A stretch of 57,868 nucleotides of DNA, counting the filler, from Sphacelaria rigidula (taxonomy: Eukaryota): assembly GCA_964200075.2 (NCBI GenBank). It is 3 parts of 3 records of this genome, joined end to end, with 100 filler letters (N's around TTAATTAATTAA, not from the genome) between each part and the next. Parts side by side here need not be neighbours in the genome. Positions count along the whole stretch, not along the records: positions 19,325 to 38,547 come from CAXNAA020000710.1; 2 more parts are not named here. One strand, written 5' to 3'. The notes under the pieces were generated by a model. That model did not search any database. It was given only the letters and a program-made list of their open reading frames with translations, and was not told the DNA's origin. This document shows, piece after piece, positions 2,323 to 41,418 of this stretch. How positions within the stretch are numbered: the first letter of the stretch is position 1; every line of letters begins with the position of its first letter. The position numbers and the translations under genes were made by a program.

Positions 2323-2355
<33 letters not shown>

Positions 2356-5330: not shown

Positions 5331-5404
5331 CTTCCTCGTCGTTTTTGCGTTTACTATGTGTCAAGTTTGTTGATCGATTTTCGTCCAATGCGCTTTGGGG
5401 GTGC

Positions 5405-16129: not shown

Positions 16130-16380
16130 TGGAGGCTGTCCTCTGTACGCCATCCATATGCAAGACAATCAGTACGCTTCGTGCCGAACGATCTCGACGG
16201 GATGCAGCTCGCCCTTCATGCGCTCACCCAACACATCACGCCGCTTCACGCTCGGAGACTGCGAGCCTGTTGCGGCGACAACCCGGCGTGCTCCGCCCCC
16301 GCTTTGTGGGGACGCGGCATTAAATGGTCTCATGACTACGGTATGCAAGGCCATGAGTATCGCCCTCCCCCCCTCTCACC
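16130..16380. repeat. Dispersed repeat family (also ~30540-30675, ~32510-32660, ~36915-37170)
   Basis: Shared core gcgagcc...ggcgaaaacccggcgtgct...gggatgc...aatggtc...atgcaagatcatgagtacacccc, ending in a C-rich tract in all four copies. Confidence 0.7.
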
Positions 16381-19224: not shown

Positions 19225-19324
19225 NNNNNNNNNNNNNNNNNNNNNNNNNNNNNNNNNNNNNNNNNNNNTTAATTAATTAANNNNNNNNNNNNNNNNNNNN
19301 NNNNNNNNNNNNNNNNNNNNNNNN
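19225..19324. other. Assembly gap with artificial TTAATTAATTAA linker
   Basis: N-run with ttaattaattaa at 19269-19280. Confidence 0.97.
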
Positions 19325-20050
19325 GGGCGGTACGTGAGCCCACCACAAAAAAAGAAAAAAAAAAAATCCCCCCCCCCCCCCCCCCCTCCCGCGCGCGCGC
19401 CCTCTTTTACTCTTACCCTTGGGGGCGGAACCCGTGTTTCCTGTGTAAATGGGCATGGTTGTGATCTGCACCACGTGAACGATCGTTGTTCTTGAGTGAC
19501 AGATGTTTATCTTTGACAATGGCTCGTGGTTTATCTGTCAGCAACGTCGGTTCAAAACGTAGGTGATCCCGAACAGCGGTGTACTCGGAGGGAAGGGTAA
19601 TAAGATACTTGTCCACGACAATCTTTTGAGCAATCTCCAATCCCAGCCACCTGGCATACGACTGCAACGACTGTAATCGGATCCAGAACTCATTGGTGTC
19701 TTGACCCCCGCTGTACTTTTGGTTGTTGGAGTCGCTCCAAACTTTCATCTTCGAACCTGATTTTTTCAGAGAAAACTGTTCATCCAATGCACACCATGCT
19801 ATGCAAGGTGATCACGACTCGAAAAGTATGTGTCTACCGACCCCATCATTGACAGTGTTGAGCAATAAGATACACGCAATCCATGCTCGTAAGATGTCGT
19901 CTGAATGCACACCCAACCCCAGTAGCTGCTGTTCGCTCAAAGGATCAACACACAGCGGCGGGTCTTTGAACAACTCCTGCGCGAAACCACACATGGAAGC
20001 ATATCGCTCAACTTCCGGCTAGAAAGTCACCCACGCATGGCCCATATTGC
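19325..20050 (-). mobile_element. Ty1/Copia-type gag relic
   Basis: ORF 19413-19787 has UBN2/Retrotran_gag_2-like features (EFWIRLQSL...KYLITLPSEYTAVRDHL), followed by an RG-rich linker before the gap. It is frameshifted, and no pol is visible. Confidence 0.55.
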
Positions 20051-20917
20051 TGTCGAAGGGGCGAATTTGTCGAGCCTCCAACGTTCGAGAATCGGCGCTC
20101 AAAAGTATTCATGTACCTTGGGTGTTACTTTGACTTTGCACACCGACACCCGTACTCAAACCCATTGCACTTGGAAATCCAAGGCCATACCTCATACCCA
20201 ACGCCGCGCTTGCGACCCGAGTACCTGCAGCATCCCCGGATCCAGCAGCGGTCCAGCTACTGAGCGGTGTCCTCCTTGCTCCGAAGTCCATCGGAGCAGC
20301 TTCCTGTCGGAGCTTCTTGTCGTGGCGGACCTGCCGTCCCCACTGTTACGGAAGCCTCTCTAGCCCTACTAGCTTGTTATTCCTTGCAACTATGCTAATG
20401 TTCAGGCGTGATTATGATCTCATGAGCAGGAACCTCTAATGTTCCACCGTGGCGGTCCAAGAACCTCATTTAGCAACTTGAGGCAGGAAGAGGGGATGGT
20501 GTCGAAGGCTTTGGCGTAATCTGATCCTTGGTTATATCAATAGACAAACATAACGAGCGCAATGGGGGGGAAATAGAAGACAACACCGTACCGTAATGTG
20601 AAGCATTGTGCTGCTGTACTGTGGGTTTTTGTCCGGCTGTCTCGACCTATACAGACAGCCGTAGTTGTGACGTGAAAATGAAGGATAAGCAGACCGTACG
20701 GCGGTGCAATGCAGCAGGGAGGTGTGCGTGTCATGGGTGTTGAAGGCCTTGTGCACTTCTTTTCTGACCGACAGGACTAATCATTCGCATCTTATCGGCC
20801 TGCACGATTTTTCATCAGGAAGAACCTACACACTTTTTCGAAACAATATCTTGTATTTTGTGGCCGCGATAAGCGTAGCTGTTACTGACTGCTTCTGCGT
20901 CGTGTACTACAATGCAG

Positions 20918-23900
20918 GGCAAATACGCCGAGGCCAAAACACTCTACGGACGTTGCCAGACGATCATGGAGAAGGTTCTCAACCCGGAGCACCCAAGCTT
21001 GGCAACAACGCTTCACAGCCGTGCTCTGCTGTTGAAAGCTCAGGTGAATACCGATGGAACTTTGTTGTGGTCGTGTGTCGACGTGTGAACGGCATTGTGT
21101 GTGCATGGTGTTCGCTGGTCCTGTGGGCCAACGTTGACTGAGGGGGCGAGCGTGTCGCCGCCAGCTCGTTGTACCTCTGAGTCGTCGAGATCGGGTACAG
21201 TGTCGTTGGCCCTGTACACACGACGCTCGCTGGCTGCACACCTGGGTGGGGTGGTAGCGCGAGTGCCTCGCCGTCGTTGTGGGTGTGACTTTCGCCGTTA
21301 CCACCTACTTTTTCATCGTGTACTACGTTGCAGGGCAAGTTCGCCGAGGCTGAGCCACTCTTCGAGCGGTGCCAGGCGATGCAGCAGAAGGTTCTCGGCC
21401 CGGAGCACCCAAAGTTAGCCACAACGCTTCACAACCGTGCGGGCTTGTTGCAAGCTCAGGTGTGAACCGATGGAGCTTCCTTGTAGTCGTGTCTCGACGT
21501 CTCAATGATTTTGTGTGGTGCTGATGTTGTTCGCTGATCCTATGAGCCAAAAGAAACTGACGAGGTGAGTATGGCTAGGCCAACCCGTTGAACCTCCGAG
21601 CAATCAAAATCGGACATAGTACCCTTCGTGCTGTACACGTGGTGCTCACCGGCTGCACACGTGGGCGGGGCGGTGGCCCGAGCGTCTCACTGCCGTTGTA
21701 GGTCCGACGTCAGCTGTCCTAAGCTTCTTGTCCGTCGTGAACTACGTTGTAGGGCAAGTACGCCGAAGCGGAAGCACTCTACGAGCGCTGCCAGGCGATG
21801 CAGCAGAAGGTTCTCGGCCCGGAGAGTCCTGAGTTGGCTGCAACTCTGCGTAGTCGTGCGGGGTTGTTGGAAGCCCAGGTGAGAGCCGATGGGACTTTCT
21901 CGTTGTCGTGTGCTGACGTGTAAACGACATTTTGCTGTCTTATTGTTTGCTGTTTTGTGGGCCAACGTTGAATGAGACGGGTGAGTAGCCAAATAGAGGT
22001 ACTTCCAAGCGGTCGGGGTCTGGCATATAGTAGTCAGCATCAGAAGTTTTCAGAATTCGTAGTTGTTCTATTTTTTTAGTTTTTCTGGAGTACTATTCTT
22101 CACTACGACTTGAAAGTGCTAGCGCCGGTAGATTTAGGGCAAAAGCGTAGGCCGCGCTCAAACTGCAGTGCTCAAGTTGGCGTTTTTGGGGCGATGCGGA
22201 CTTGATACCCAGGAGGGTGTTATTGACCGTTTTTGGTCCAATATGAGCAGTTTTCCCGCTCTTCAGCGACGAAACGGTAAATATTCAGAAAATGAACACG
22301 TATAAAACTCTTCACAATAACGATCGAGATCGTGTTTCCCTCCTATACTGCACAGACCTCAGTCTAGCATTTTCTGTGGATGGCCTATTTTCGGGGGGTT
22401 TTCGCATAAAATTTTCCATAAGCACTCGAAAGTGCTTGCGTCGATAGTTTTGGCAAAATAAGCAAACCATGCTTAAATGACAATCGCCCAAGTTGGTGTC
22501 GTGGGGGCGATACCGGGTAAAGACCTCGTTTATCAGGAGGGTGTCATTGACCGTAAACGGTCCAAGAAACATAGTTTTCCTGCTCTAGCGCAGTGACCAG
22601 GTGGGGTTAAAAGAAAAATAACGTTTTGAGTCTTCATTTATAGGATCCAGATCGAGTTGGTCCACCGAAAATACCGAAAAGCTAAAGCCTGGGGTCGTAC
22701 TTTCGCAGGACCCCCGAAGATCGGTCAAGCTCTTAAATCACTCATGATTGATCGCAGATAACTTTTATTTCAATATATGTCAACATGCATGAAATATCTC
22801 CGGATGCTCATGTTTTGGCATCCAAAAGTCACTGTGATGAGTGGTGGTAGGCAAAACAAATTTGGACAATCTTTGAGAAACTAAGAAATTACGGATTCTG
22901 CATACTTCTGACGCTGACTACTGTAGTACCCTTGGCCCCGTACAAATTGACCTTTCCCGCTGCACACCTGGGCGAGATGGTGACGCGAGCGCCTCGCCGC
23001 CGTTGTAGGTCAGACGTTGACTGTCATCGTCTGCTTCTGTGTCATACTACGGTGCAGGGCAAGTACGCTGACGCTGAGCCACTCTACGAGCAGTGCCAGG
23101 TGATCGAGGAGAAGGTTCTCGGTCCGGAGCACCCAACCTTGGCCACAACGCTCATCAACCGTGCGGGTTTGTTGCAAGCCCAGGTGAGAGCTGATGTGCC
23201 TTTATCGTTGTCGTGTGTCGACGTGTAAACGGTGTTGTATATTTTCGATATCGTTTTGCAGTCCCTTGGCCCGAAGCCAACCCGTTGTACGTCTGAACCG
23301 TCGAGATCGGCCATATTATCCTTGGCCCTGTAAGGCAAGCTCAGGTGCGAACCGATGTAACTTCCTCGTTGTCGTGTGTCGACGCGTGAGCGACATTGTG
23401 TTGTGTTGATGTTCTTCGCTGGTTCTGTGGGCCAACGGTGACTGACAGGGTGACTGCGACCAGGCCAAGCCGTTGTACCCCTGAGCCGTCCAGATCGGGC
23501 ACAGTACTCTTGGCCCTGTACACGCATCGCTCGCCGGCTGAACGCATGGGCAGGGCAGTGGCACGAGCAACTCTTCGTCGTTGCGGGTTCGGCATTGAAT
23601 ATTGTAAACTGCTCCTTGTGTTATTTACTACATTGCAGGGCAAGTACATCGAGGCTGAACCGCTCTACGAGCGGTGCCAGGTGATGCTGGAGAAGGTTCT
23701 CGGCCCGGAGCACCCAACCTTGGGGTCAATGCTGGGATGCCGTGCGTTGTTGTTGCAAGCGCAGGTGAGAGCCGATGGAACTTTATCGTCGTCGTGTATC
23801 GGTGTGTGAACGACATTGTAAGGTGTTGGTGTGGTTCGCTGATACTTTTGGCCAACGTTGACTCAGAGGATGATTGCAGCGAAGCTAACCCGTTGTGCCT

Positions 23901-26900
23901 CTGAGCCTCCGGGGTCGTGCAAAGTACCGTTGGCCCTGTACACGAAGCGCTTGCCGGCTGTACACCAGAGCTAGGGAAAGGCCCGAGCGTTTTGCGTTTC
24001 GCTGCCTTATCAGGTGCGATCTTGACTTATATGAGGTGCTTGTGCGTCGTGTTCTACATTGCAGGGCAAGTACGCCGAAGCCGAGGCACTCTTCGAGCGG
24101 TGCCAAGCGATGCAGGAGAAAGTTCTCGGCCCGGAGCACCCGAGCTTGGCCACAACGCTCGACAATCGTGCGGGTTTCTTGCAAGCTCAGGTGAGAGCAG
24201 ATGGAACTTTGTCGTAGTCGTGTGTCGATGCGTGATTGACAACATGTGACGTTGATGTTGTTCGCTGGTCCTGTGGATCAACGTCGACTTAGAGGGCGAG
24301 TGCGGCGAGGCCAATCCCTTCAACGTCTGAGCCGTCGAGATTTGTAATTGTGCTCTTGATCCTGTAGACATATAGCTCGCCAGCCGCACACCTCGGTGGG
24401 ACGGTGGCGGTCTCGTCGCCCTTTCAGGTCCGATGTCGACTGTTGCAGGCTGCTTCCGCGTCGTGTACTACATTGCAGGGCAAGTACGCCGAAGCTGAGC
24501 CACTCCACGAGCGGTGCCAGGCAATGCTTGAGAAGGTTCTCGGCCCGGAGCACCCAAGCCTGGCCACAACGATTCACAACCGTGCGGGTTTGTTGCAAGC
24601 TCAGGTAAAGTTAACCGAATTTCATCGTGATCGTGTGTTGACCCATGAACGGTTTAATGTGGTGTTGGTGTTGTTTGATGGTCCTGTGGGCCAATGTTAT
24701 CTGAGAAGGTGAGTGCGGCAATACTAACCCCTCGTATCTCTGAGGTGATGAGGTCTGGCATGATACCTTTGGGTCTGTACACATAGCGCTCACAGGCTGC
24801 ACACCTGGGCGGAGCGGTGTCGCGAACGTCTCGCCTCCGTTGTCGGTCCGACGTTGCTGTCGTGGGTTGCTTCTACGCCGTGTACTACATCACAGGGCAA
24901 GTACGCCGAGGCCGAGCCACTCTACGAGCGATGTCAGGCGATGAAGGAAAAGGTTCTCGGCCTACAGCACCCAAGCTTGGCCGCGACGCTCCATAACCGT
25001 GCGTTGTTGTTGCAAGCCCAGGTGAGAGCCAATTAAACTTTGTCGTGGTCATATGTCGATGTGTGAACAACTTTGTGGTGTTGATGTTGTGTCCAGGTCC
25101 TGTGGACCGCCGTTGGCTAAGAGGGTAAGTGCGACGAGGCCAACCCACGGGACCTCTTAGCCATCACAAATGGAGGTCGTAACAACTGCCCTTCCTAAAC
25201 GCACCCCCGGTTGGCTGCATTCCTGGGCGGGGCGATGGCGCGATCGTCTCGCTGCCGTTGTAGTCTGACGTTGAGTGTTTCAGGGTGCTTCTGCGTCGTG
25301 AACTATATTGCAGGGCAAACACGCTGAGGCTGAGCGTCTCTACAAGCGATGCCAGATGATTAAAGAGAAGGTTTTCGGCCAGGAACACCCAAGCCTGGCC
25401 ATCACTATCCGCGACCGTGCGGGGCTGTTGCAAGCTCAGGTGAGAGCCGATCGAATTTTGTCGTTTCCGAGTGTTCGTGTGGACGACATTGTGTGATGTC
25501 GATGTTGTTCGCTGGTCCTGTGGGCCAACGTTGACTGAGGGGGCGATCTCGGCTAGGCCATCTCGTTGTACCTCTACGCCCTCGAGATCGGACATGGTAC
25601 GCTTGGCCCTGTACACGCGTGGCGCTCGCCGGCTGCACACCTGGGCGGGACAGTGGAACGAGGATCTCTCCGCCGGTTTAGGTCCGACGTTGACTGTTGC
25701 GGGATGCTTCTGGGTCGTGCACTGCATTACAGGGAAATTACACCGAGGCTGAGTCACTTTTCGAGCGGTGCCAGGCGATCGAGGAAAAGGTCCTCGGCTC
25801 GGAGCACCCGAGCTTGGCCACAACACTCAACAGCCGTGCGGGTTTGTTGCAAGCCCAGGTGAGGGCTGATGTGCCTTCATCGTTGTCGTGTGTCGACGTA
25901 TAAACGACCATGTGTACTATCGAGATCGTCATGCAGTCCCTTGGCCCAACGTGACCCAGAAGATGAGTGCGGCGAAGCCAACCCGTCGTACGTCCGAACT
26001 GTCGAATTTGGCCGTAGTATCCTTGGCCCTGAAACGCATCGCTTACCGGCTGCACGCAATAGCGAGTCGGTGGCGCCAGCATTTCGCTGCCGTTGTACGT
26101 CCAACGTTGACTGTTACAGGCTGCTTCTGAATCTTGTACTAAATTACAGGGCAAGTACGCCGAGGCTGAGCTGCTATATAAGCGGTGCCAAGCGATCGCG
26201 GAGAACGTTCTTGGCCCGGAGCACCTGAGCTTGGCCGCCACGCTCCACAACCGTGCGGGGTTGTTGGAAGCTCAGGTGGGAGTCGATAGACCTTTATCTT
26301 TGCTGGGTGTTCGTGTGAGCGACATAGTGTCGTGTTGATAGTGTTCACTGGTCCTGTGGGCCAGCTTTGACTGAAGGGGCGAGTGCGGCGATGCGAACTC
26401 GTTGTACCCTTGAGGCATTGAGATGTTGCATAGTATCCTTGACACTGTACACGCATCGCTGACGGGCTGCGCACCTGGGTGGGGCGGTGGCGCGAGCGTC
26501 TCGCTGCCGTTGCAGATCCGACGTTGACTGTCACAGTATGCTCCTGCGTCGTGTCTACCTTTCAGGGCAAGTACGCCGAGGCTGAGCCATTATACGAGCG
26601 GTGCCAGGCGCTTGAAGAGAAGTCTCTTGGCCCGGAGCACCCAAGCTTGGCCACAACGTTGAACAATCGTGCGCATTTGTTGCAGGCTCAGGTGAGAGCC
26701 GAAGCACCTTCTCCACCTTCTCGTCCTCGCATGTGGAAAATGTTGTGTGGTGTTGATGTTGTTCGCTGGTCCTGAGGGTCAGTGTTACTAAGGCGATGAG
26801 CACGGCGAGACCAATCCGCTGTTCCTGTGAGTTGTCGAGATCGAGCACAGTACTCTTCGCCCTGTACGCACATAGCTCGCCGGCTGCATACCTGACTGTA

Positions 26901-28719
26901 GCTGTAGCGCGAACGTCTCGCCGCCGTTGTGAGTCCGACGTTTACTGTCCTAGGCTTCTTCTGCGTCCTGCGCTATTTTACAGGGCAAGTATGCCGAGGC
27001 TGAGCCACTCTACGAGTGGTGTCAGACGATCCAGGAAAACGTTCTTGGCCCGGAGCACCCAAGCTTGGCCACGACGCTCGACAACCGTGCGGGTCTGTTG
27101 CAAGCTCTGGTGAGAGTCGATGAAACTTTGTTGTTGTTCTCTGTTCGTATGAATGTCTTGTGTTGATGTTCTCACTGGTGGGTTAGTGTTGACGGGCTCA
27201 AGGCGTGAAAGGGGGGAAGTCAACCCGTCGTACGTTGTAGCCGTCGCGGGCAGCCCTAAGTATTTTAACACATCGAGGTCCGGCTGCATACCTGGGCGGG
27301 GCGGTGACTCGAGCGTCTCTCCGCCGTTCTAGGTCCCACGTTACCTGTGACGTGTTACTTATGCGTCGTGTACAATTGCAGGGTAAGTTCACCGAGGCTG
27401 AGCCACTGTTCGAGCGGTCTCAGGTGATGCACGAGAAGCTTCTCGGCCCGGAACACCCAAGCTTGGCCTACACGCTCCACAACCGCGCGAGACTGTTGTA
27501 TGACCAGGTGGGAGTCAATGTACCTTCATCGTAGTTGTGTGTCGATGTCTGAAAGGCATTGTCTTGTGTCTCATGTTCTCCGCTGGTCCTGTGGGCCAGC
27601 GGTGACTGAGAGAGTGAGTGTGGCGAGGCCAACCCGATGGAGCTCTGAACCATCGGGATTGGGCATTGTATTCTTGGCCCTTATTTACATGGCGCTCGTC
27701 GGCCGTATACCTGGGTGGGGCGGTGGGGCGAGCTTCTGGATGTGTTGTACGAAGGTCTGGCGTTGACTGTTCCGAGCTTCTTCTGCGTCATGAACTATAT
27801 TACAGGGCAAGTACGCCGAGGCTCAGCCACTTTATGAGCGGTGCCAAGCGATCCTGGAAAAAGTTCTTTCCCCTGAGCATCCTGACCTGGCTGCAACGCT
27901 GGGTAGCCGTGCGCGCTTGTTTCAAGCTCAGGTGAGAGCAGTTGGACATCGTCGTATTCGTGCGTCGACGTGTGAAGCACATTTTGGTTTCGATATTTTT
28001 CGCTAGTCCTGTGGGCAAACGTTGACGTGACAGTTTGAAAGCGGAAATGCCAACCCGTTGTACGTCTGAGCCGTCGATATCGGGCATAGTGCCCTTGGCC
28101 CGACCGCCTCGCCGCCGTTGTGGGTCCGACGTTTACTGTCCTCGGCTTCTCCTGCGTCGTGTACTAATTTACAGGGCAAGTATGCTGAGGCTGAGGCACT
28201 CTACGAGCGGTGCCAGGCGATGCAGGAGAAGGCCCTCGGCCCGGAGCACCCGAGCTTGGCCAAAACGTTCCATTACCGTGCGGGGTTGTTGCAAGCTCAG
28301 GTGAGAGCAGGTGAAACTGTGCCGTAGCCGTGTGTTGACGTGTGATCAGCATTGTGTGGCGTTGATGTTGTTCGCTAGTCCTATGGGCCAGTGTCTACAG
28401 ATATGGTGAATGCTGCAGCGCCAACTCGCTGTACCTCCGAGCGGTCGAGGTCGGGCACAGTATCCTTGGCCTTCTTCACATATCGCTCCCCGGCTGCACA
28501 CCTCAGCGCGGCGGTGGTGTGAGCGTCTCGCTGCCTTCGTAGATCTTACATTGATCGTTTTAGGCTGCTTCTGCGTCGTGTACTGCATCGCAGGGCAAGA
28601 ACGCCGAGGCCGAGACACTCTACGAGCAGTGCCAGGCAATGCAGGAGAAGGTTCTCGGCCCGGAGCACCCGAATTTGGCCGCCACGCTCCACAACCGTGC
28701 GGGGTTGTTGGAAGCTCAG
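20918..28719 (+). CDS. Array of 17 intact 126-nt phase-0 exons, each encoding one 42-aa TPR unit (kinesin-light-chain/TPR_10-12 type, as in brown-algal NB-ARC-TPR genes); no start, NB-ARC or terminal exon identified
   Basis: Exons, all AG|...|GT and without stops: 20918-21043, 21334-21459, 21753-21878, 23058-23183, 23639-23764, 24065-24190, 24479-24604, 24896-25021, 25314-25439, 25733-25858, 26150-26275, 26566-26691, 26984-27109, 27382-27507, 27806-27931, 28175-28300, 28594-28719. Consensus GKYAEAEPLYERCQAMQEKVLGPEHPSLATTLHNRAGLLQAQ. Confidence 0.92.
22028..22923. mobile_element. Tc1/mariner-type non-autonomous element inserted in TPR intron 3
   Basis: ~33-bp TIRs tagtagtcagcatcagaagttttcagaattcgt / acggattctgcatacttctgacgctgactactg with TA on both sides (22026-27, 22924-25). 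Removing it restores the intron consensus ggcaTAgtacccttggccc. Confidence 0.85.
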
Positions 28720-29455
28720 GTGAGAGCCGATGTATCAATCTCGTAGTCGTGTGTCAACGTGTCGACGATATTGTGCTGAGTTTACGTTGTTCGCTGGTCC
28801 TGTTGGTCAACGTCGGCTGACAGGGTGAGTGAGGCGAAGTTAAGCCGTCGTACATCTGAACCGTCGAGATCGGGCTTAGTACTCTTGGCCGTGTACACAC
28901 ATCACTCACTGATTAAATACCTGAGGGAGGCAGTAGCGACAGCTCCCTGCTGCCGTTGCACGGACCGCCCTTCGGAGATTCGGTGCTCTCGCGCAGTCAA
29001 CTGTATCCCAATTCATCGGCCGCACAAGTTAGGTCACAGCGTGTCACAGTTGGGTGTTGTCGTCAGCAGTGCAGGTGCAAATTTGGGTAATCTTTCGGCA
29101 AGGGTTAGTGGCTTCGGCAGTAGCTATATGGCAAACCTACGTTTTTACTTGCAGTGTTCCTCGGTCTTGAGTCTTTTCTCGTGATACATGTATATATTCC
29201 TTCCTAGTATTTCCGTGCCTCCCCTCTCTGGTTGGTGAGAGCTTGATTCTGTCTTCCTTGTTTTGTTTTCCAGCTTCTACTACGTTTTACATATATTTTT
29301 GTTTCTTTCGCTGTTTTTTTAAGCGAGCGTTCTGTTGTGTTTACGTTGGGTATATCTATCTTGAGGTCACGGCCAGGTCCCTCGGAGATCAGCTAGTTTA
29401 CAACAATCGATTTCCCAATCAAGCCAGTATAGCAGAACTAGATTACAGTTTTTTT

Positions 29456-30156
29456 CACGTCGGCCAGATAAGCTCACTGTAGCTCGAGCTAGCTCTTTTT
29501 TCGCGTAGCTCCTTCCTGAGCAATGAGAGCTACATAAGCTACGCATGTTTTTTTCCGTGGGTGAGCTACGAGAGTGCATGAGCTACCAATATGTAGCTCA
29601 TAAGCGGGTTTTACCCTAAATTAAGCATAAGAACTGCATAAGCAACGAATGGTGGCCCTGGTGAGTTACCGGACGTAGCTCATCCCCGAACTCTAATCCT
29701 ATCCCTATCCCCATCCCTCAGCTACATGAGCTACGCATTTTGAAGTCGGGGTGATGTATGAGAGCTACATGAGCTACGTGTTTTTGTCCTGAGTGAGGTG
29801 CCCGATGTAGCTCATCCGGACATGTTCCCCCGGGCTGAGTTACCCACGTGTGAGAACTACGTATGGGGCCTCAAGGCTGAATGCCACGCGAGAGGAGCTG
29901 TTTCTGTTCCGATGCACATGCACGTTGATCTATGAGGACATTCAAATATCTGTATTCTGTTTTGCCCGGTGGATGTCGTTGGAACATCCGTGGCATGACG
30001 GGCTACATCAGCTACGTATGTTTGCCCTGAAAGAGCTACCAACCCGTAGCTCACTCGCGCATGTGTACCCTGTACGAATTATCGGGTGTAATTCATCTGT
30101 ACAAGTGTGACCACGAGTGAGCTGCAGCTCACAGATGAGCTAGGTCACGAGGTGTT
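29456..30156. mobile_element. Probable non-autonomous DNA transposon rich in gagctac/gtagctc motifs
   Basis: Many gagctac motifs in both orientations and loosely complementary ends (cacgtcgg...agctc / gagct...cgaggtg). The same motif occurs in the TIRs of the 10083 and 51295 MITEs. Confidence 0.45.
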
Positions 30157-32876
30157 GGACGCGTAAAGTCTTTCCGCGTGGTCGGCGTGTTCTTGGGTAG
30201 TATTAGCCTAATGGGTTGTCCTTGAAGGATTTGTGATGCTCAGCCCCTTCCTAACGCGGACAGGCTGCGTTGTATGTCGGTACCGAATCCAATCAAGATC
30301 GACACACACTGCCCGTAGGAGGACCCGCAGTTCATAACCCCATTCGGCGCTTTGGAGAGGAGCTTGGTAGATAATTTTACCAAGTAGAACGACCAAGCTG
30401 AAAACCTTGCTCGTTTGTAGACCTGTGGGCTGACCTAAAAACATCCTGGAAAAACGTATGGTTGATCTCGGAAGCAATCATTGACGATCGGGGAACCCCT
30501 ACGCCCCTCCCCCCAAGATCATCACGGCGGTCCAAGATCATCACGGCGCTTCGCGCTTGGTGATTGCTTGCGAGCCAGGTCCGGCGAAAACCCGGCGTGC
30601 TGCGTCCCAGCGTTGTAGGGATGCGAGGTCAATGGTCATATGACTGGCATGCAAGATCATGAGTACACCCCCCGTCCAAGATATTGGGACCCCTGGACTA
30701 TCAGCCGGTGAAATCATTCCGAAGCGGTGCTGGGAGTCAAGGGGTTGGCCCCTTGACCGTTGGAATCGATTATTCGCTGACTCGTTATCATTTACGTTTG
30801 AGAATTCCTGGATGACCCACCTGACCTACCGTGGTGGTCAAAGAGCTCGTCATCTTCGTTGCGAACCCATTCCACAACAGTAGCAGTAACCTCAGGTTCC
30901 TCGTGCCCTTCACGCATGTTCTTGGCCCGTAGAAATCCCTGAGCAAACCTTGTGAGATCCAGCTGCTGGACCATTGCCAGCGAGGGTTGACGTGTGTAAT
31001 GAAAATGAAACATGTGTTTCATCAAGACATGTATCACCAAGCTATGAAAAATGAGTATCCGAACGGAAATCGCAAAACCAAGAGAAATGCGCGCAAGGAA
31101 ATGCGGTTCCTAGCGCGTCCTGTTCGACCACGCACGCGAAATGTTTCCGTGTGGGAGTCACGCTCACTCCCGAATGTTCATATCCAAGTAGTTGTACATT
31201 CCTGCTGACAAACCCACACATTTGGTTGTGATCAAAGCTTCAGTTTCTACGTTGTAGTTGCCGCATTCCCCCGCCCAAAAGGAAAATAACAGGAGGTGTG
31301 TATGGCCAATATATTGGGGTGTCAGGTCGGTTGGGGTATTTGTTGGTTTGGAGTTTCTTGAACAATAAGACAAAATAGTCGTAAATTTGGAGGGAGCGTA
31401 ATTGTACCGCGTATTGCCCCCGGCATTAGAATCACGGACATCTCCCATTGAGTCCGTTGATGACGGGAGCATTCTGGCTATTATACTACATGCGCTGACG
31501 ACACCTTTGGAATTTCCTCCGACGTCCCAACTTCGCACGCATATATACCATCATTGCGCCATTGCACTACCATTCTCGTTGAATCACGTCTAGTTGAATG
31601 CAGGCTGCTGCCAAGCTACCTCGTCGCGCCTCCTGTACGACCCGAGGTCAACGCACATACTCACGCGGAATGACGTCCCTGTCGCCTCATGATCGACCCC
31701 ATCGCCAATGTAGTTTGATAACCAGGTCGAACTTCTGATCTTGGTCCCGATGCGTATCAAGTTTACGGCGCTCCCGCGTTCAGCTCCCGATGCAGACACT
31801 GGGGAAATACCTTCTTAGAGCACGTCGCCGCGTGTATGCCTGAACAAACACGATTCTAGGAAGGTAACGCGCCGCGAACTTGCAACACACGCGCCTCTGT
31901 TCGAGAACCACCCACAATTGCTATAGGTCCTACTTATGCGCTCTAAATGGAACCTTGACGGTAACAGCTCGCCAGTCGTCGGGACTGTACCGCTGAATTC
32001 CCTCTCGCCAGAGAGCGTCATAACGTGTTTTCAAACGAAATCCTTTGGGTTTTCTCGTTACCATAGGCACATATTTTGGACCCTCGGCATGGTATCAAGT
32101 ACGATGCACGCAAGCATAGCAGTAGTGCTTATCCTCCGATTCCCCGCTTATCCGCCAGATGTCGACCTTACTGCAAGTATAACTCGACTCGATGATGATC
32201 GAACACGCGCCCCCGTCCCATTATAAGCCGTCTCTCCGCTCTCCCCAGCATTATCGGCAAATGAATCCCGACTTTCCGGTGAAAATACGTGGACCACGGG
32301 CAATCTGGCGACAACTGCCGGTGTAGTCTTCACACTTCACAATACCTGCGTGTAAGAGGCGACATATTCCCCCTACTCGAGCGCCAGCGCTTCCCAGCCG
32401 TTGGGCTAATGCATGTAAGGTCCCCACGGATGCGAACCTCCGGTATGTTTTTCCAGAGACAACAGAGTACTTCAGATGCGTGAGAGGATTTCTGCACGTT
32501 ACTAAACAGAGATTCTCCCCTCGCTGGTCTTGGAGCTTGGTGGTTGATGGCCAACCTGGTCAGGCGAAAGCTTGGTGTGCTTCGTCCCGGCTTTGTAGGC
32601 ATGCGAGGTCAATGGTCAGACGACTATGGCATGCAAGATCAAGAGCGCACACCCCCTTCACATCTAGACTCCTTGATTGGCGTCAAGTGCAACGGCGCTG
32701 TAAATCAAGCCACCAGAACCTAGACATATAATGTACAGACTATCACGGTACGTACACCAGAGACTGCCACTAGGCGAAAAACATTTCCGGACCGACAGAC
32801 ACACTGGGCATTCAAAAATTCAAAGAAATATTTTTTTTCCCTCCCAGAAAAGCACAAAATGGAGATAAACACGATA

Positions 32877-33924
32877 CTTGCTCTGTCCCACAAGTCTGGT
32901 CGGTTATGTTTGTACGAGCCCTTACCTGTGTCCGATCTGATTTTAGATGTTTTTTTCCCTATTTCTTGGCTGTTTTTGTAGTTAGAAGCATAGCTCCTTT
33001 GGTGCAGCTCGCTGTTGAACTATGCGACCGAACGGCCGCAAAAAATCAGTCGACCCCAAACTGGCCGTATTTCGCCCCTTTTTTCTCAGGGGCAAAAATG
33101 TGTCAGAGAAATTGACTGGTCGATCGGGGAAATTACCGGTCATCTCGTCCGCCTGGTCGCAGATGAAGTCGATCCAGCGAAGCTTCTGAGCAGGGGGAAG
33201 GGAGGGTTTGATACGGTGAGCCACGTTTGCTGCACCTTCTTTCTTGAACCACCGCTGCACAGTCTCCGCACCGTAATCCAGCCCGATGTCTCTCGGCTGA
33301 TCGGACACCTGCCGGAGCGTAAATGACCGATTCTGCTTTTTGACGTTCTTCAGCGCCGCAACCTTTGTTGGCGTGAGGAGCGACGGCCTTCCAGCCCTGT
33401 GTTATTTGAAAGGTCGACCTCCTGCCTAGCGTCGATCTGGGCTATATCGTTTTTCCACAATTTCGTCGGGTACTCGGAACCAACACCGTAGCAATCGCAA
33501 ATTGGCCCCAGGGAGCCCTCGGGCACCCTCACCTTGCCCGGTGGAACAGCGAGCGCAACCCCCATCGCAAGCTCATAGCGGCGACCCGCTTGTAACTCAT
33601 CCCCAGTCTTGCGAGAGGGGGGGGGGGTACTCGGGGGCAATTCTATCGTATTGTGATATCTGTGGACTAGGTGTGATATGTTTTACCCGAATTCTCAAGA
33701 ACAATCTCAAGACAGTTCTCACAAGAATTCTCAAAAAGACCAAAAATGAGGTTTATTCTGACCTGATTTTAGTATTGAAAACAGGGTTCTTATTTTATTT
33801 ATTTCTCATCAGCTTCGTACGCGCTTTATCTTTCTACCGAACACAACCATGAGGTCATCGTCAACACCGTTGCACCCAAACAACAAACCGGTTATAGCCG
33901 ACCAGGCTTCTGGGACAGAGGAAG
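32877..33924 (-). mobile_element. Internally deleted mariner-like (Stowaway/DD39D-type ends) DNA transposon with N-terminal transposase relic
   Basis: TIRs cttgctctgtcccacaagtctggtcggttat / atagccgaccaggcttctgggacagaggaag flanked by TA. The minus-strand relic reads ETVQRWFKKEGA...RIKPSLPPAQKLRWIDFICD, like the helix-turn-helix and linker before a mariner DDD domain. The catalytic domain is missing. Confidence 0.8.
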
Positions 33925-34519
33925 TATAAGAAGAGCTGAACGTTGTTGTTTTGTTTTGTATTGTTTTGTTTTCCCTAGTCTTTCCCATTGTACTCCTTGC
34001 TTTTCCTCTTTCTTTTTTTTTCTTCCTTTTCTATTTTTCTCTTTTTTCTGTTTTTGTTTCTCAGACTACCAGAACACAGCCTAGACATAGACATGAAATG
34101 ACGAAGCTAACAGCCCGGAAATAAACATAAAATGACGAAGCTAAACATCTTTTTTTCCCGAACCTACCATAACATAGCCCGGACATAGATATGGGACAAC
34201 GGAGCCACCTTTTTTCTTCAGCCTACCATAACACAGGCCGGAAATAGATATGAAATAGCGAGAAAGAAAGTTGTATTCCCCGTATCAAAACAGAAAACAA
34301 CGTAGATTCTTTACTCATATCATAGCAAAAGGTAAGGCACGAAAAAACCAACAAACAGATGTGCAAGTAATAGCGTGAAGGTTGACCACCTTACATGCAA
34401 ATAAAAAATACAAGAGATGTAACAAATACGGATAGGGTAGGGTCATCACTCCCGGCACGTTAAATTCACAAGGAGGTGGGGGTCTCGTGGTGAGATACCC
34501 GTTAAAACTTACCGATATC

Positions 34520-35150
34520 CATCAGGCAGTGGAAATCTGGTCAACCATTTTCCTGAAATTCCCGACATTAGATGCATATGCGTCTAGTGAAGGGAAATGG
34601 GTGGATAATGCATGACATAAATACGAAGACCTACTGCACTCATGAATTACACACCTTACCAATGACCGACCGCATGACCTACGAGAAGGAGCACCAAGCG
34701 GTACATCGGCTTGTTGAGATCTTGAAGGATATATGCTGGTACAAAGTGTGGGGGAATCGTTGGCCAAGCTTTCGGCAGCGAAGGTCTACTCGGAAGCATT
34801 AGTAGAGTAGCGATCCATGGTAAAGCGTACACGGAATTGGAAGGAGTGATGTACGGGACATCCCGATGTGTGAGTAAGACCTTGTGTTATGCAAACCGTT
34901 CTTGAACATTACACGGTGAAAATGACCTTCCTGGAGGAAAGTAGCCAGTACAGCAGTGGGGCAAGAAGATGGAAGATACGATCGTAGGATGCCTGGATAG
35001 TTTACCATGAAGATCGCTTCGCACAAACGTGGTGTACTTGTGTCAACGGTGTAGGACTTGGCTTCAGGCTACAAGCCCGTGATGGAGGCTATGAGCCAGC
35101 CAAACAACTGAAAGGCACCAGACCCTCAACAAGCACTAGAGTCGGGATAC
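34520..35150 (-). pseudogene. Possible highly decayed reverse-transcriptase relic (Penelope-like)
   Basis: Only faint resemblance (LHGKLSRHPTIVSSIF vs the LPKIHK...RPIVS motif), with many stops. Confidence 0.25.
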
Positions 35151-37136
35151 TCCAATACGTTGGCTACATCCCACCACAAAACTTGAAACGATCAAAATGG
35201 AGGTACTCTTGAAAGGGATCGAGAAATATCGGGATTACTTCAATCGCGCAAATGTACCGAAGGCACACAATTTGGGGCTGCGTATTTGCAGGACCCCCGA
35301 TGAGCGGTCAGCCTGTAAGTTCGATCAATGTCGAGTATATATTAGTTTTTCTTCACAATGTGGCGGCGGATGCTTGGAGACGATCCCCGACGTTTGGGAT
35401 CAAACGTTAATTGGGGTGGGGGTGACACACACAAAAAACTAATGGAAATTGCGAAAAAATACGAACTCCGTCTCGTTTAGCCGCCAAGTACTGTACTTAC
35501 GGACATACACCATAAATTCATCAGTCTTCCATCTACCTTATCTCTACATTGTCAACGTGAATAGACGTACCACCGCCAACCGTGTCGCAAACCCCACCCT
35601 AGCTAAATGTGGAGCATATCCGAGTCGAGAAAAAAATGTCGTGATCATCTTGTGCCGTGTTGCCTTCTTCACAATTCATAACCTACACAATTCTTCCTCC
35701 GCGTGTCACAATTTACAGTGGCGCTGACGGGTCCTAGCCAGGTGTGCACTAACATGAACCTTTGCATGACCTCAAAACCCCCTGGCCGTCGTCAAAACAT
35801 GGCCTTTCACCATGTGGTTGTCGCCTTGTTTCACCCATATCGTTTGGTTCTTTTCGTGTCAATACTTCTCCTAAGCGTTATTGGCCTGCGTCCGAGACCT
35901 TGAAGCAAACGTCCGCATTTGTCGCAAAATTCCGTTGTTGTGGCCTGTGTAATGGTAAGTTGCCCAAGGAAAACTTCACATGTCCTTCAATCACACAACT
36001 TCCGATGTACCCGTTCATTGCTGTATAAGAGTAGTTCTGATGCTCGACATTATTGCAACTACGTCACACACAAAATCAGCGACGACACCTCTCTGCCGGC
36101 CCCCAGGCCAAGCAAGCTCACGTACCTCACTGGTTCCGCAGCTTCTATGAAAGCGATCTCCGAACGTTTCTGTCCCCCGACGATACAGGTTCTTCCCGTG
36201 TCGTTCCCGCCTTTATTTCCATCAAAGATGGGTGCTGTAGGGGCGTTCCCATCTCCATCTTCTGTGAGAATAGTAAACTACTCTCAGAGTGGCCGTGGTC
36301 GCACTGGCCTTGTTCCCCCTCGGGAATCGTTCATGCGCTGTAATTTCACTAGTTCATGATCGTTTGCACCGTATCCACCCTCGAGGTGTCGCACGTCTTC
36401 CTCTACCCTTGTACACTCTCCACTCGCGCAAACCTCGCTAGTGCCCCATACAGGTGGCTAAAAGTCAATGATGCAGTTCCGACTGGTTGAATTTTGTCTG
36501 TAAGATCTCGCCACATATTGTCGCACTCTTGTCCCCACATTTCGCCTTCCGCTTATGTTTGATCACACCGCATTGTGTCGCTCGTGGCCTGTCAAATGTC
36601 AAGGTCATTGAGATCTCCCGTTTGCTATTATATTATCCGTTCCCGTCCCATGTGTTTCTTCGTGGCATGACCCCGTGGTTGGTTCCAACCTGCTTCACAG
36701 CACCTGCCCATCTAATAACTATGACGGATGAGATGTCTCCTCTCATTAGTGCTGGGTCACTTTCCGACCTCGATTTGTCCCTAACAATCAATGCCCGCAC
36801 CCATGCTGTCATGTTCAACGCGATCAGATCTACTGTGAAAAAGTGACTGCCTCGACAGACACATGTGGGATTTTTTCCTTCTGTGGTAACCCCCTCCTTC
36901 CCCCCCCCCTCCTGCCGTCGAGGCTGTGTCCCATTTTCGAGATGATTTGTACGCGTCGGGCTTAACAACCTTAGTAGGATGCAGCTCACCCTTCATGCGA
37001 CTCGCCGACATATCACGGCGCTTCGCGCTTGGTGGTTGCGAGCCTGATCCAGCGAAAACCCGGCGTGCTCCATCCCGACTTGGTGGGGATGCAATATCAA
37101 TGACTTTATGACCACATCATGCACAACGATGAGTAC

Positions 37137-37172
<36 letters not shown>

Positions 37173-37200
37173 CCCTCTCCCTCACAGAAGGAGACAGGGG

Positions 37201-37210
37201 NNNNNNNNNN
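37201..37210. other. Assembly gap (10 N) between poly-C tracts
   Basis: N-run. Confidence 0.95.
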
Positions 37211-38409
37211 TCTCGCCCAGCGGTGACTACCCCCCCCCCCCCCCCCCATGAGCCCCTTCGTACGTTCATTGACGAGAAGAGGTTTGTAGAGGTAACCTTT
37301 TCCGCCGACTAGCTGTGAAGATCATCGTACACCTTTCTTCACATATCTTGTGGTTGCTGAGTCGCCAACAATGTCTGCAGAAGACGTTCCCGTGAGTTTT
37401 GGAACTCCTTTTGCTCATCACCCACCAGGGTCCTGACTACCCTGCGATCTCACGACTCTTTGCCGCCCGCTTAACTTCACGGATCTCTCTCTCTCTTTCG
37501 TCATTCGAAACTTGTGAACTTTGGTCATTGCGCATAGAGAGATATTTCATGAAGCCGCCAACGTGAAAAAAGTGACTGTCTTCAGCGGACGCTTGCGGGA
37601 ATTGTCCCTTATCCGTAGCGGTGTCCACATGATGAATGAATGGACATCTCGCTATGTCGTGGATGTTCGTACGTTTCGTGTGCCCTCGAGTTCTCGTCCT
37701 CTGTCATATCATGCCCCCGCCACCTCCCCAATCTCCGGCAGTATCCTGCCATAGAATCTGCCCATTCCATCCGACATACATGCACTGGCGATCGTTGAAT
37801 ATTTGCAAAGAGGGGTGCATACATGTAGACCCTCTATTGCGAAAGCCCTTCCTTTAAAGATCTATCCACAATGCTGAATCCGCGTGAAGGTAATGTAACT
37901 TTCCTGGTACCATTGCCGTGTACCATGTTTGAATTTCCGAATAATCGTTTCCCATGTGGAACATGTGTCATCATCAATGCCCTCCGAATGGCATATCGTC
38001 CTGGCCGTACTATCGTTGCTATGTTGCGCAGTTTTCTCACTTCTGCTGTGAAATATATTGACTTTTGACTGTGTTGCCAAAAGCAGTCGAGAAGCGTCTC
38101 TATCAACTAGGAGCCTCGCTTTGAACTGTATCGTCTAGCTACGTCTCATAAAATGTCGGACCAGAACTTGCTCTCCAAGATACCGTCGTCACTGTCGCAT
38201 CATCTGGAAGAGGAATTGCCTTACCTTTCAAAGCTGGTCCTCCGACCGTAGCTGGAATCGTCACATCCCCTGCACGAGGTACAATTTTTACCGTCTCTGG
38301 GGCACTGTAGTTATGTGAAAGGGCGACGGCTGAAGCCAGAATGCTCCATATTAGGACGAAGATCCCCACCCCTAGGGCACCCTGCAGTCTACATGTCTAT
38401 TATTATATA

Positions 38410-38547
38410 CTTCGTCTGTCCCATTCCCATAAGTCTGCTCGGTTATGTTTGCACGGACATTTAACAATGCCCGATTCTTCACTGAGTGATGCTACGGTAG
38501 GGGTACAGAAATAATTTCTGAGGTTAGAATTTTAGGAGCCCCTTATC
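38410..38547. mobile_element. Left end of a second element of the 32877-33924 family, cut by the gap
   Basis: TA followed by cttcgtctgtccca...taagtctgctcggttatgtttgcacg, which matches the left TIR at 32877. Confidence 0.6.
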
Positions 38548-38647
38548 NNNNNNNNNNNNNNNNNNNNNNNNNNNNNNNNNNNNNNNNNNNNTTAATTAAT
38601 TAANNNNNNNNNNNNNNNNNNNNNNNNNNNNNNNNNNNNNNNNNNNN
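38548..38647. other. Assembly gap with artificial TTAATTAATTAA linker
   Basis: N-run with ttaattaattaa at 38592-38603. Confidence 0.97.
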
Positions 38648-39157
38648 TTCTCGGTGCTTACAGGGTGCTTGTGTGTTTTTGTGTGAGGGTGGCTTCTTAG
38701 GGCGTTCGAGAGGGAGCGGGGGGGTTGGGGGTCGGAAAATGTGGAACTGCACTGAATAGTAGGTGAAGGCATCGTGTTGGGCGTCCTTTAACGTGGAGAG
38801 CATGGTGCTCGACTGCGCGCGTGGAAAGTGCAATATGATTTTGACGAACTTCCGTATCCGCAGCATGTCGAGTGCACTGAACCGGAGGACTGGAAAGGGC
38901 GGGATAGAGCGATTCGCCATGCGTTTGCTCCTCTTCACAGCTCTTGCTGTTTCCTCGACAGCTATGCGGAGTACATGACCTCACTTTCCTGCTCAGCTTG
39001 ATCGTGTCCTGTATTTGCTGTCGTGTAAACTCAAAGCGCCCATGTGCTGTGAAACCGTCGCTTCGCTCTTCGCCGCCCCAATATTTCCCCCGTCCGTCGT
39101 CCTCCTTCCTCGTTTTCCATGATTTTTACATAATCATATTGTTCTGCCCTGATGTAG

Positions 39158-39894
39158 ATGCGGTGCGAACGATCATTCGCGAGGAAGGGCCAATGGCGCT
39201 CTACAAGGGAGCGGTGCCGGCTCTGATGCTGTGCACGCAGGGCGCGGTGCAGTTTACTGTGTACGAGTGGCTGAAGGCCAGAGTGCCAAAGCAAAACGAA
39301 AATGTACGCCCCATAGTCATGCTAGGCGCTCTCTCTCGCAGCGGCACCTTGCTCCTCCATATTCCGTAGAAAATCCAGTGTAATCTAGCCCAGCAGTCGT
39401 CGTGCGATGGAATACCATGCATGTTTTAATTGCAATTGACCACCGGATGTGCTCTGTGCGCAGCGTTGCCGCCGGGCATGCTCGACGTGTGGGACGACCT
39501 TACCTTGGACGGTTGTCACTATACGCATACGTACTACATTTGTGTTTTTTCGCTCGCACCCTTTCCGAAAACATGTGGGTGATCTTAGCCATTGACTCGA
39601 TCTGTTTTTTTTTTTGCTCGTTTTCTGCGTTTTTTTTTTTTTCCTGCGCTGTTTTTGCGTCATATATATTTTTTTTGCGTCTTTTTTGTTTTCTGCCCCT
39701 TTTTTTTGTTCGTCGAAAGTTAAGCTAGGGTAGTAATATGGTGGGGGACCGCGTGGAGAGCCCTGATTTGACTTGACTTTTGAACAGAGCTCCTCACGGG
39801 GTCCCCGTACTCCACCGTAGTACTATCCTGGCTTAACTCTTGACGTTAAACGTGAAACATGAACGTGTCACGTGTAGGGCCCTGAAAGAAGGAG

Positions 39895-39925
<31 letters not shown>

Positions 39926-41418
39926 GGCAGGTTTTTTGCCCGAGGGAATCGCAAGTCTGCGCTGTCCTGTTGGAAATCTGCGCCAATTATGGTCAATCCT
40001 CTTCAAAATCTGCCGTATTTTCTGAAAATCTGCGACATATTTCGTTTTTCCTGCTGTTTTTTTCGTGGCCATTTTTCTGATAAAAAATCCGGCATTCTGC
40101 TTTTTTTGCGACCGCAGATGGAGTCAATGACTAGGTGACCTGCATATGTTATCTAAGGTTTGATGAACGGTATTGCTGCTGTGCTTATGTAACGGATCGT
40201 CGACCGTTAGAAACCGATGGTCAGTCGTGGTGAAGTGATCGCGCTTTGCCGAAACCGGCAGTTGAAAGCTGTTGAACAAGACTTGTCATCCCGCGTTTCC
40301 TCGTTCCCTCGTGCTGCTGCTGCTGCTGCTGCTGCTGCTGTGCAGACACCTCTCGAATCACTCGTCATGGGCGGTATTTCCAAGATTTTTTCCAGCCTGG
40401 TGACCTACCCCAGTCAGGTGATGAGCAGAGGTGTCTTGCTTTCCCCCCGCATTTGTGCCGGCGGTGATGTTTCCGTGTGGGTGGGGCCGCGTGAATGCTG
40501 GTTGAAGCAGTAAAATAACAGAGGGGTACCATTAGTCTACTCAAACTTGTGATACCTGGCAGTTGTTTCCAACGCATGTTGCCCAACGGCAGTCAACAAT
40601 GCCTTCACAGAAGTCGAGACAACGAGGTCGACATGGGCCCTTGTGAGCATTTCCATTCTTCGAGAAGTGGGGCGCGTGCACTCGAAATCTTCAACCGAAG
40701 ATTTCCAGGGATATGTACGGATACACCCGTCGTTTTACGTATTCAAAACGGTAGCGTCAGAAATAAAAATAAATATGAGTGAAAGAGGGAACATGAAAAA
40801 GCAACCGGTCCGGGGACTCGATCCGCGCACATTCCGCTTTGAACGGATTCATATTACGGCCCCTCCTACGTAGCGAAAATTTCACGGATTTCAAACCGTG
40901 TTTTTTTTTTTCAAACGACTCCTGAGGGAGGAAGACGATGTATTTTGCAACGCGAACACGCTGCTTCGATTCCTCGTCATTATCAGCTGTTTTCTTTGCC
41001 CTTCTTTGCGTCAAACTTATTTTACTATTGATCTCAGAGCAAAAAAGAAGAAAAAAGGCGATTTTCTCCGTACACATCCATGAAGATTTCCAGGCCCGCA
41101 CTCGCTTACGCCTGCTCTTCTGTTGGCCATCCTTGCATGCCGAAAACCATCCACACACCCACACATGTGCACACACGTGTACACATCCAAACACACTCCC
41201 AGGTTATCAAGTCCCGGCTGCAGCAGCGGGGAACAGAAGACGAGATACGAGCAGGCGTTTCTCGGTACCGCGGGGTCATACACTGCGCGGCAAGCATCGC
41301 GCGAAGGGAGGGCTTGCGGGGCTTTTTCAAGGGTTGCGTGCCATATGCTGTCAGGGCAGCGCCCGCGTCTGCCATCACATTTGTAGTGTACGAAGAGGTG
41401 ATGAAATTTTTGACGTGA
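39158..41418 (+). CDS. Mitochondrial carrier family protein, folate/FAD carrier-like (SLC25A32/FOLT1-like); last three exons only
   Basis: Exons 39158-39303, 40346-40417 and 41203-41418 splice in frame: AVRTIIREEGPMALYKGAVPAL...AVQFTVYEWLK / SKIFSSLVTYPSQ / VIKSRLQQR...REGLRGFFKGCVP...PASAITFVVYEEVMKFLT*. The YPxQVIKSRLQ variant of the carrier signature is typical of folate carriers. 5' exons were not found. Confidence 0.9.

Follow-up and report, generated by a model that had tools for sequence, protein, structure and literature searches.

The closest described system is the NB-ARC-TPR family of Ectocarpus (Zambounis et al. 2012, PMC3341825). According to the sections of that paper available, to which all comparisons below refer, its loci contain 126-nt phase-0 exons encoding one 42-aa TPR each (124 TPR exons in 13 loci, average ~9.5), and the family has an omega of 0.388 under M8 with positive selection reported at site 31. 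The paper itself states that there is no direct evidence for an immune role of the family. Teng et al. 2023 (Plant J 114:246), as cited in the available part of Teng et al. 2024 (PMC11378527), have claimed that NB-ARC-TPR genes undergo alternative splicing, and the statement in an earlier note on this DNA that the diversification mechanism is not known is therefore dated. The 2024 paper itself reports one-LRR exons and splice variants for brown algal ROCO genes.

We analysed a window of 57,868 nt of Sphacelaria rigidula (assembly GCA_964200075.2), in which positions 19,325-38,547 correspond to contig CAXNAA020000710.1. This 19.2 kb contig carries a TPR array built of ~417-nt duplicated units, each consisting of an exon and its intron, and is flanked at both ends by identical N44-TTAATTAATTAA-N44 spacers. 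The array has transposon debris on either side, and the contig ends only 1.6 kb upstream of TPR exon 1, probably within an intron that contains the copia-type gag fragment. The features of the locus are the following.

19225 to 19324, no strand: assembly spacer N44-TTAATTAATTAA-N44, bounding the contig on the left
19413 to 19808, - strand: fragment of a copia-type gag, located 5' of exon 1 (PF14223, E 1.9e-5, 24.7 bits, under the curated cutoff of 27)
20879 to 20917, + strand: acceptor-side stub of 39 nt with unit-intron homology, left edge of the array
20918 to 21043, + strand: TPR exon 1, 126 nt, phase 0
21334 to 21459, + strand: TPR exon 2
21753 to 21878, + strand: TPR exon 3, TAG acceptor; joined to exon 4 over the MITE-containing intron
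22028 to 22923, no strand: intron 3 insertion of 896 nt, MITE-like, bounded by 39-nt terminal inverted repeats and a TA duplication
23058 to 23183, + strand: TPR exon 4, 3' end and next intron like unit 10
23335 to 23344, + strand: 10-nt remnant of a deleted 18th unit (exon 3' end, then GT donor) in intron 4
23639 to 23764, + strand: TPR exon 5
24065 to 24190, + strand: TPR exon 6
24479 to 24604, + strand: TPR exon 7
24896 to 25021, + strand: TPR exon 8, sharing a spliced contig with exons 9-10
25314 to 25439, + strand: TPR exon 9
25733 to 25858, + strand: TPR exon 10
26150 to 26275, + strand: TPR exon 11
26566 to 26691, + strand: TPR exon 12, spliced to 13
26984 to 27109, + strand: TPR exon 13, spliced to 14
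27382 to 27507, + strand: TPR exon 14, spliced to 15
27806 to 27931, + strand: TPR exon 15, spliced to 16
28175 to 28300, + strand: TPR exon 16
28594 to 28719, + strand: TPR exon 17; read-through gives 8 extra codons, then a stop
28720 to 28962, + strand: donor-side ~240 nt with unit-intron homology, right edge of the array
38548 to 38647, no strand: second assembly spacer (same N44-TTAATTAATTAA-N44), right limit of the contig

The earlier note had described 17 same-strand exons of 126 nt with intact AG/GT and neither stop nor indel, and this was confirmed: all 17 (20918-21043 to 28594-28719) lie on the + strand in phase 0, with 16 CAG acceptors, one TAG acceptor and GT donors throughout. Their coding frame is stop-free, and the other two frames contain stops in many exons. 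Each exon encodes one 42-aa TPR of the kinesin-light-chain type, an identity borne out by Pfam TPR_12 and TPR_10, which match five of the five exons tested. Run over the window, a profile of the exons picked out the 17 and no others at E<=8.3e-32 or better; its seven further matches are all at E>=0.15. The family signature GKYxEA[E/D]PL[Y/F]...Gx[D/E]xxx[V/I]AxxLxNxAxLLxxQ is followed by the majority of the exon alignment, except at position 28, which is Leu and not Val/Ile. The repeats also align without gaps to the 42-residue repeats of the kinesin light chain (PDB 5oj8, 6fuz) and of Podospora (4y6c, 4y6w). Unlike the array, the kinesin light chain has six repeats and a role in transport, and serves as a structural analogue only.

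In exon type, signature and local duplication, here old, the array resembles the Ectocarpus NB-ARC-TPR genes (PMC3341825), as it does in omega (0.30, CI 0.19-0.42, versus 0.388) and in the inactivated unit at 23335, which lies on the coding strand, with no significant match on the - strand. The nearest repeats point the same way, since the top four of the 120 listed homologs, ranked by mean repeat identity (81, 80, 74 and 72%), are all brown algal proteins; the kinship to the Ectocarpus class proposed in the earlier note is thus supported. In contrast to what that paper describes, no NB-ARC is seen in the contig of the array, the exons number 17 against an average of ~9.5, all repeats are of a single Cys13 subtype, and no positively selected site was detected, by a simpler test, against site 31 in Ectocarpus. 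Uniform Cys13 arrays are also found in CBN79677.1 (the E. siliculosus NB-ARC and TPR protein, P0007), in the Ectocarpus cluster members P0121 and P0124 and in Nemacystus decipiens P0002 and P0005, and position 17 ranks with the most variable positions in the array and in these five proteins alike. The five are more homogenised, with a mean identity of 85-92% and identical repeat pairs in four of them, whereas the array has a mean of 72% (maximum 86%), resembling Sphacelaria P0006 (66%) and P0052 (70%).

The intactness of the exons exceeds what chance would give, because the rates measured in the introns predict both indels and stops, and neither is present. The 16 complete introns carry 26 indel events over 4080 nt, from which 13.65 indels are predicted in the exons; none was seen (P(0) ~1e-6). 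In a neutral simulation at intron rates, a stop arose in 10.5 of the 17 exons, a stop-free outcome was obtained in none of 3000 runs, and 280 amino-acid changes accumulated versus the 123 observed. The simulation led us to reject both a chance product of tandem repetition and pseudogene drift. The exons are under purifying selection, in line with the maintenance by selection proposed in the earlier note. Nine positions equivalent to the KLC1 groove carry 53 of the 123 amino-acid changes (p=0.0007), with substitution at 0.93 of the intron rate versus 0.29 at the remaining sites; in the part of PMC6214655 available, the KLC1 ligand-contact positions correspond to the variable positions of the array. 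The alignment with KLC1, from which the groove geometry is taken, suggests that variation concentrates at ligand-groove equivalents at an approximately neutral rate. At p<0.05, none of the 42 sites evolved faster than the neutral rate set by the introns (best p=0.06, uncorrected) in a test on 17 short sequences that is simpler than a codeml-type site model.

We consider the array to be, with fair probability, an old, expressed and mostly in-order sensor part of a brown algal NB-ARC-TPR (NLR-like) gene, and not an active cassette library. It would form the C-terminal sensor part, with the 5' half of the gene past the contig end. Ancient tandem amplification of one ~417-nt exon-plus-intron unit would have produced 18 copies or more, of which 17 are left, and the phase-0 layout would permit gain, loss and exchange of units over evolutionary time with the frame intact. 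The main transcript would join the exons in order to give a long TPR superhelix, in which scaffold residues are under selection and concave-groove residues diverge between repeats about neutrally, producing a varied binding surface. The array would sense ligands and may have an immune role.

Expression was examined in two sets of contigs, X1 and X2, which are RNA-like by guess (neither run is on record as RNA), come from a single study and, as contigs, drop rare forms; all joint counts refer to the 15 joints listed of 91. The comparison covers X1, X2, X7 and X8, with the shares of X3-X6 left aside. Seven GT..AG joints occur in X1 and X2 alike, every one linking neighbouring exons, and six of the seven have a similar depth along the array (25-38). 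These neighbour joints are absent from the joints listed for the DNA-like X7 and X8. Seven of the 16 neighbour junctions are thereby spliced in order, and the other nine are not among the joints listed. Exons 8, 9 and 10 share one unbranched spliced contig of 365 nt in both X1 and X2, and spliced contigs differ from the genome by 0-2 letters. Transcription with splicing is hence supported, and one isoform may dominate. RNA-like cover is lacking beyond the 3' end of exon 17, from which no conclusion is drawn. Skipping of exons in the same gene, yielding a substantial combinatorial repertoire, perhaps only under infection or stress, would be favoured by the common phase 0 and near-identical splice signals of all exons, by the claim of Teng et al. 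2023 for NB-ARC-TPR genes and the demonstration for ROCO LRR exons (PMC11378527, as far as available), by two TPR exons of Esi0322_0028 that lack EST support, and by the 15-of-91 scope of the joints. However, none of the 15 joints skips an exon, which, with the single 365-nt contig and the even depth, makes such a repertoire rather unlikely. The array shares with the ROCO genes (PMC11378527) and the NB-ARC-TPR genes of Teng et al. 2023 one repeat per exon, the status of candidate receptor and splicing as a proposed source of diversity; unlike the ROCO genes, it encodes TPR and not LRR, and against the splice variants described there, only in-order joints are listed here.

The earlier note suggested an HMM search of the flanking scaffolds for NB-ARC exons, and none was found in the window, where the contig extends beyond the array by 1.6 kb on the upstream side and by 9.8 kb on the downstream side. 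Neither tblastn of 31 of the 120 listed homologs nor profile searches revealed NB-ARC, linker or terminal exons in the window: 16 of 4688 tblastn pieces fell outside the array (nine weak ones of 21.6-29.3 bits in the intron of the last unit, seven with E>=0.42), and the best profile match outside the array among 2215 six-frame segments reached only E=0.029. This result would suit a TPR-exon gene with a different N-terminus (a TPR-only scaffold or another domain), as would the 11 of 18 scanned homologs with no NB-ARC match and the further repetitive TPR loci mentioned in PMC3341825. However, many of the NB-ARC-less matches are labelled partial, including several of those 11, and among the five proteins with Cys13 in every repeat, Pfam NB-ARC is found in four and a P-loop-like motif in the fifth (P0005). 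On these grounds we regard a different N-terminus as quite unlikely, and the repeat subtype argues for a link of the array to NB-ARC.

One further joint, present in X2, leads back from exon 7 to exon 2. It is highly doubtful that this is a true back-splice (circular RNA) or a rearranged somatic copy which, with condition-dependent skipping, draws on the 17 groove-diversified repeats for a Dscam-like repertoire. If true, such non-colinear products and repertoire would be direct evidence that a brown alga generates repertoires in a programmed way.

The array might also be an orphan or recently pseudogenised exon reservoir, severed from its gene by transposon insertions, of the kind proposed in PMC3341825. 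The debris on either side would fit, as would the absence of a start or family-type terminal exon in the 1.6 kb before the array and the 9.8 kb after it, profile searches having found no family-type terminal exon after exon 17 within those 9.8 kb. Against this, besides 17 lesion-free exons and the near-perfect spliced contigs, exon 1 seems to have an upstream splice partner: in both X1 and X2, an RNA-like contig is identical to the genome over 20915-21040 and continues upstream for 10 letters outside this match, so that exon 1 appears to be spliced to an upstream exon outside the contig. A severed reservoir is therefore very improbable.

The tandem amplification is old. Units diverge in a star-like manner, identity is 59-75% between full introns and does not exceed 89% between exons, none of the units is a recent copy of another, and the intron tree (median tip length 0.2) has support for one of 15 inner branches; such a star tree can equally come from old mosaic conversion. 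No link was found between identity and distance within the array. An intron piece of unit 4 is 86% identical to unit 10 and 60-73% to other units, which points to one later exchange after the array's amplification. Units 1 and 9 share a 44-nt identical intron tract of marginal significance (stratified p=0.037), and tracts in units 11/17, 12/13 and 2/3 were non-significant (stratified permutation p 0.15-0.27). A negative correlation between exon and intron distances over pairs was gone per unit (rho -0.19, p 0.48) and was dropped. The remnant at 23335 lies in an X7 DNA contig (23106-23657) with a gap-free match, and the MITE-like insertion has very high depth in DNA runs. A pattern scan of metagenomes returned six loci whose homology to the array is confined to a 21-23-nt motif, and they are therefore chance matches. 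Active reshuffling of units through recombination, either targeted in somatic cells or frequent in the germ line, a hypothesis put forward in PMC3341825, could draw on the 4/10 exchange, the 1/9 tract and the back-joint, but is extremely improbable in view of the low identities unrelated to distance, of the unit order kept with few SNPs over the listed pieces of X7 (short contigs from another study) and of the somatic recombinants described as unreported in the available text of PMC11378527. The combinatorial cassette library of the earlier note was not supported here, as the listed spliced joints all link neighbours, exons 8-10 are unbranched, X7 keeps the order and recent unit copies are lacking.

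As its layout is already published, the locus adds an example and not a new system. Its 17 exons are so diverged (only 25 of 2087 distinct 31-mers repeated) that nearly every junction can be distinguished in reads, with cleaner counts than in homogenised family members. The value of the locus is as a test case for in-order splicing versus skipping versus somatic shuffling, and a first look favours in-order splicing with slow evolutionary turnover.

The array occupies positions 20918-28719 on the + strand and comprises 17 exons, each of exactly 126 nt and in phase 0 throughout. All acceptors are AG (CAG in 16, TAG in one), the donors are GT and the coding frame is free of stops, as the earlier note had described. 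The TPR identity claimed there was also confirmed, Pfam TPR_12 and TPR_10 being matched by all five exons tested. A DNA profile built from the array exons recovered the 17 and no other significant match on either strand of the window. The duplicated unit is an exon plus its intron, ∼417 nt, and the homology begins 39 nt 5' of exon 1 and stops ∼240 nt 3' of exon 17. These edges fit tandem amplification of one exon with its flanks. The following features lie within introns:

Intron 3: MITE-like element of 896 nt, with an inverted repeat of 39 nt at either end plus a TA duplication
Intron 4: deleted 18th unit, of which the final 10 nt of the exon and its donor remain

A diverged relative of the intron 3 element (66-77% identity) is found at ∼8377-8740.

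The pairwise p-distance between units is 0.327 for introns versus 0.217 for exons. Exon differences at codon positions 1, 2 and 3 amount to 0.19, 0.14 and 0.32, so that third positions track the introns, indicating a similar age for the two parts of the unit. The pooled Nei-Gojobori omega of the exons is 0.30 (0.19-0.42, codon bootstrap), which may be somewhat low because their dS, at 0.59, is above the distance of 0.43 between introns. Indel events in the 16 complete introns number 26 per 4080 nt, a rate that predicts 13.65 in the exons, whereas none was seen. Under neutral simulation, 10.5 exons were expected to contain a stop, none of 3000 runs gave a stop-free outcome, and 280 amino-acid changes were obtained versus the 123 observed. 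The array is thus conserved, in agreement with the earlier suggestion that selection maintains it. In a per-site test, no repeat position exceeded the neutral expectation, the highest being position 17 (p=0.06, uncorrected).

The exon profile could be aligned to the repeats of kinesin light chain with no gaps. The KLC1 peptide-contact residues named in PMC6214655 map to exon positions 3, 17, 30, 33, 34, 37, 38, 40 and 41, with a self-consistent numbering anchored at N343/N344. These 9 of the 42 positions account for 53 of the 123 amino-acid changes (permutation p=0.0007), and dN relative to the intron rate is 0.93 there versus 0.29 elsewhere in the repeat. By analogy with KLC1, this pattern fits relaxed constraint or mild diversification of a putative binding face; it is no proof of positive selection.

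Identity between units is 59-75% for full introns and 64-89% for exons, with no relation to distance within the array. The intron tree is star-like, with a median tip length of 0.2 and one of 15 inner branches supported (intron 10 with the piece following exon 4, 86% identical). This suggests that the expansion of the array, or its last homogenisation, lies far back in time, although old mosaic conversion could have produced the star tree instead. When identical tracts were submitted to a permutation test, one was marginal (44 nt shared by intron 1 and intron 9, stratified p=0.037) and the next three gave p values of 0.15-0.27. Later exchange and loss of units in this old array were therefore rare. 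Five related arrays are more uniform (mean repeat identity 85-92% versus 72% here), whereas two are about as diverged (66-70%).

Eight sequencing runs were found, none on record as RNA, and four were compared with the window as contigs at 92% likeness. Two samples from one study, X1 and X2, behave as spliced RNA. Their GT..AG joints remove exactly introns 3, 8, 9, 12, 13, 14 and 15, at a depth of 25-38 (72-101 for intron 15), and depth is zero in a bin within intron 4. One 365-nt contig carries exons 8, 9 and 10 without differences in both samples. Judged from these RNA-like contigs, the array is expressed. The exon 1 contig has 10 extra upstream letters left unaligned to the genomic flank, which point to a splice from an exon beyond the contig; at the corresponding junction, a Gln codon is present in homologs. 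Read-through past exon 17 would meet a stop after 8 codons.

Among the 15 joints listed of 91, seven connect neighbouring array exons, seven lie in repeats (three in the MITE, four downstream) and one runs backward; none skips an exon, in contigs that drop rare variants. The combinatorial exon library proposed earlier is thus not borne out, and the data favour in-order splicing of an old array. The backward joint connects the exon 7 end with the exon 2 start (24601 to 21331) and occurs in X2 only, at a depth of 68, about twice that of the array's own joints. Exon 17 is also covered by deeper contigs with two silent differences in X1, X2 and the DNA-like run X7, which suggests that a close paralog exists at another genomic site. 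Both the depth and these variant contigs make a paralogous transcript the likelier source of the joint; a back-splice is less likely, and an assembly artefact is a further possibility.

X7 behaves as DNA from another individual. Among its listed pieces, unit order is kept, with 0-6 differences per piece. Three of the 40 differences listed (of 116) fall in exons of the array locus: G to E at codon 11 of exon 1, I to N at codon 33 of exon 4, a position that would be groove-equivalent, and one silent change. The other DNA-like run, X8, has low depth and contains an intronic deletion of 18 nt.

The 19.2-kb stretch carrying the array is bounded on both sides by identical N44-TTAATTAATTAA-N44 spacers, which we read as artificial joins, so that sequences across them need not adjoin in the genome. 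Upstream of exon 1 there is only 1.6 kb of contig, with a weak copia gag match. Other elements of the window are:

∼1876-5360, + strand: decayed LTR retrotransposon, broken across frames, carrying PF17921 (integrase zinc-binding domain, E 5e-7) plus weak similarity to an integrase core
∼30540-30675: short repeat of extreme depth in all four runs compared, a very abundant small interspersed element; look-alikes, by eye, near 16200-16370, 32550-32660 and 36980-37140
32874-33927: element with 34-nt inverted ends around a transposase-like HTH_32 fragment (- strand, E 0.0013), likely a Tc1/mariner relic
38908-39369 and 41032-41418, + strand: mitochondrial carrier gene exons (PF00153), on the contig after the spacer
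47954-48052, 48643-48743 and 48894-48994, + strand: three clustered C/D-box snoRNA copies (Rfam RF00333, snoZ157), scoring 56-64 bits, over the gathering score
56805-57074: 105-nt tandem repeat, 2.6 copies

According to PMC3341825 (Zambounis et al. 2012), 13 of 24 Ectocarpus NB-ARC loci have TPR exons of 126 nt (42 aa, phase 0), with local duplications and inactivated exons on the coding strand; somatic recombination is proposed there without direct evidence. The exon length and phase are common to our array; omega is 0.388 in Ectocarpus versus 0.30 here, and one site is positively selected there, whereas none exceeded the neutral expectation in our simpler test. PMC11378527 (Teng et al. 2024) describes splice variants of ROCO LRR exons, gives somatic recombinants as not reported so far, and attributes a claim of alternative splicing of NB-ARC-TPR genes to Teng et al. 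2023; PMC13449251 restated the same view in 2026. Our literature search, covering subscription journals thinly, found no long-read test of brown algal TPR exon use.

Relatives were drawn from the best 120 of 8000 candidates scored in a profile search, 31 of these 120 being taken as algal by name or source. Pfam NB-ARC was detected in 7 of 18 homologs scanned from these 120, and in four of the five proteins among them whose repeats all carry Cys13, a cysteine at repeat position 13. Judged from its relatives, the array comes from a brown alga. Homolog and profile searches of the window found neither an NB-ARC or linker exon nor a terminal exon of the family type. The array probably belongs to the brown algal NB-ARC-TPR family, and it behaves like the putative sensor arm of an NLR-type receptor.
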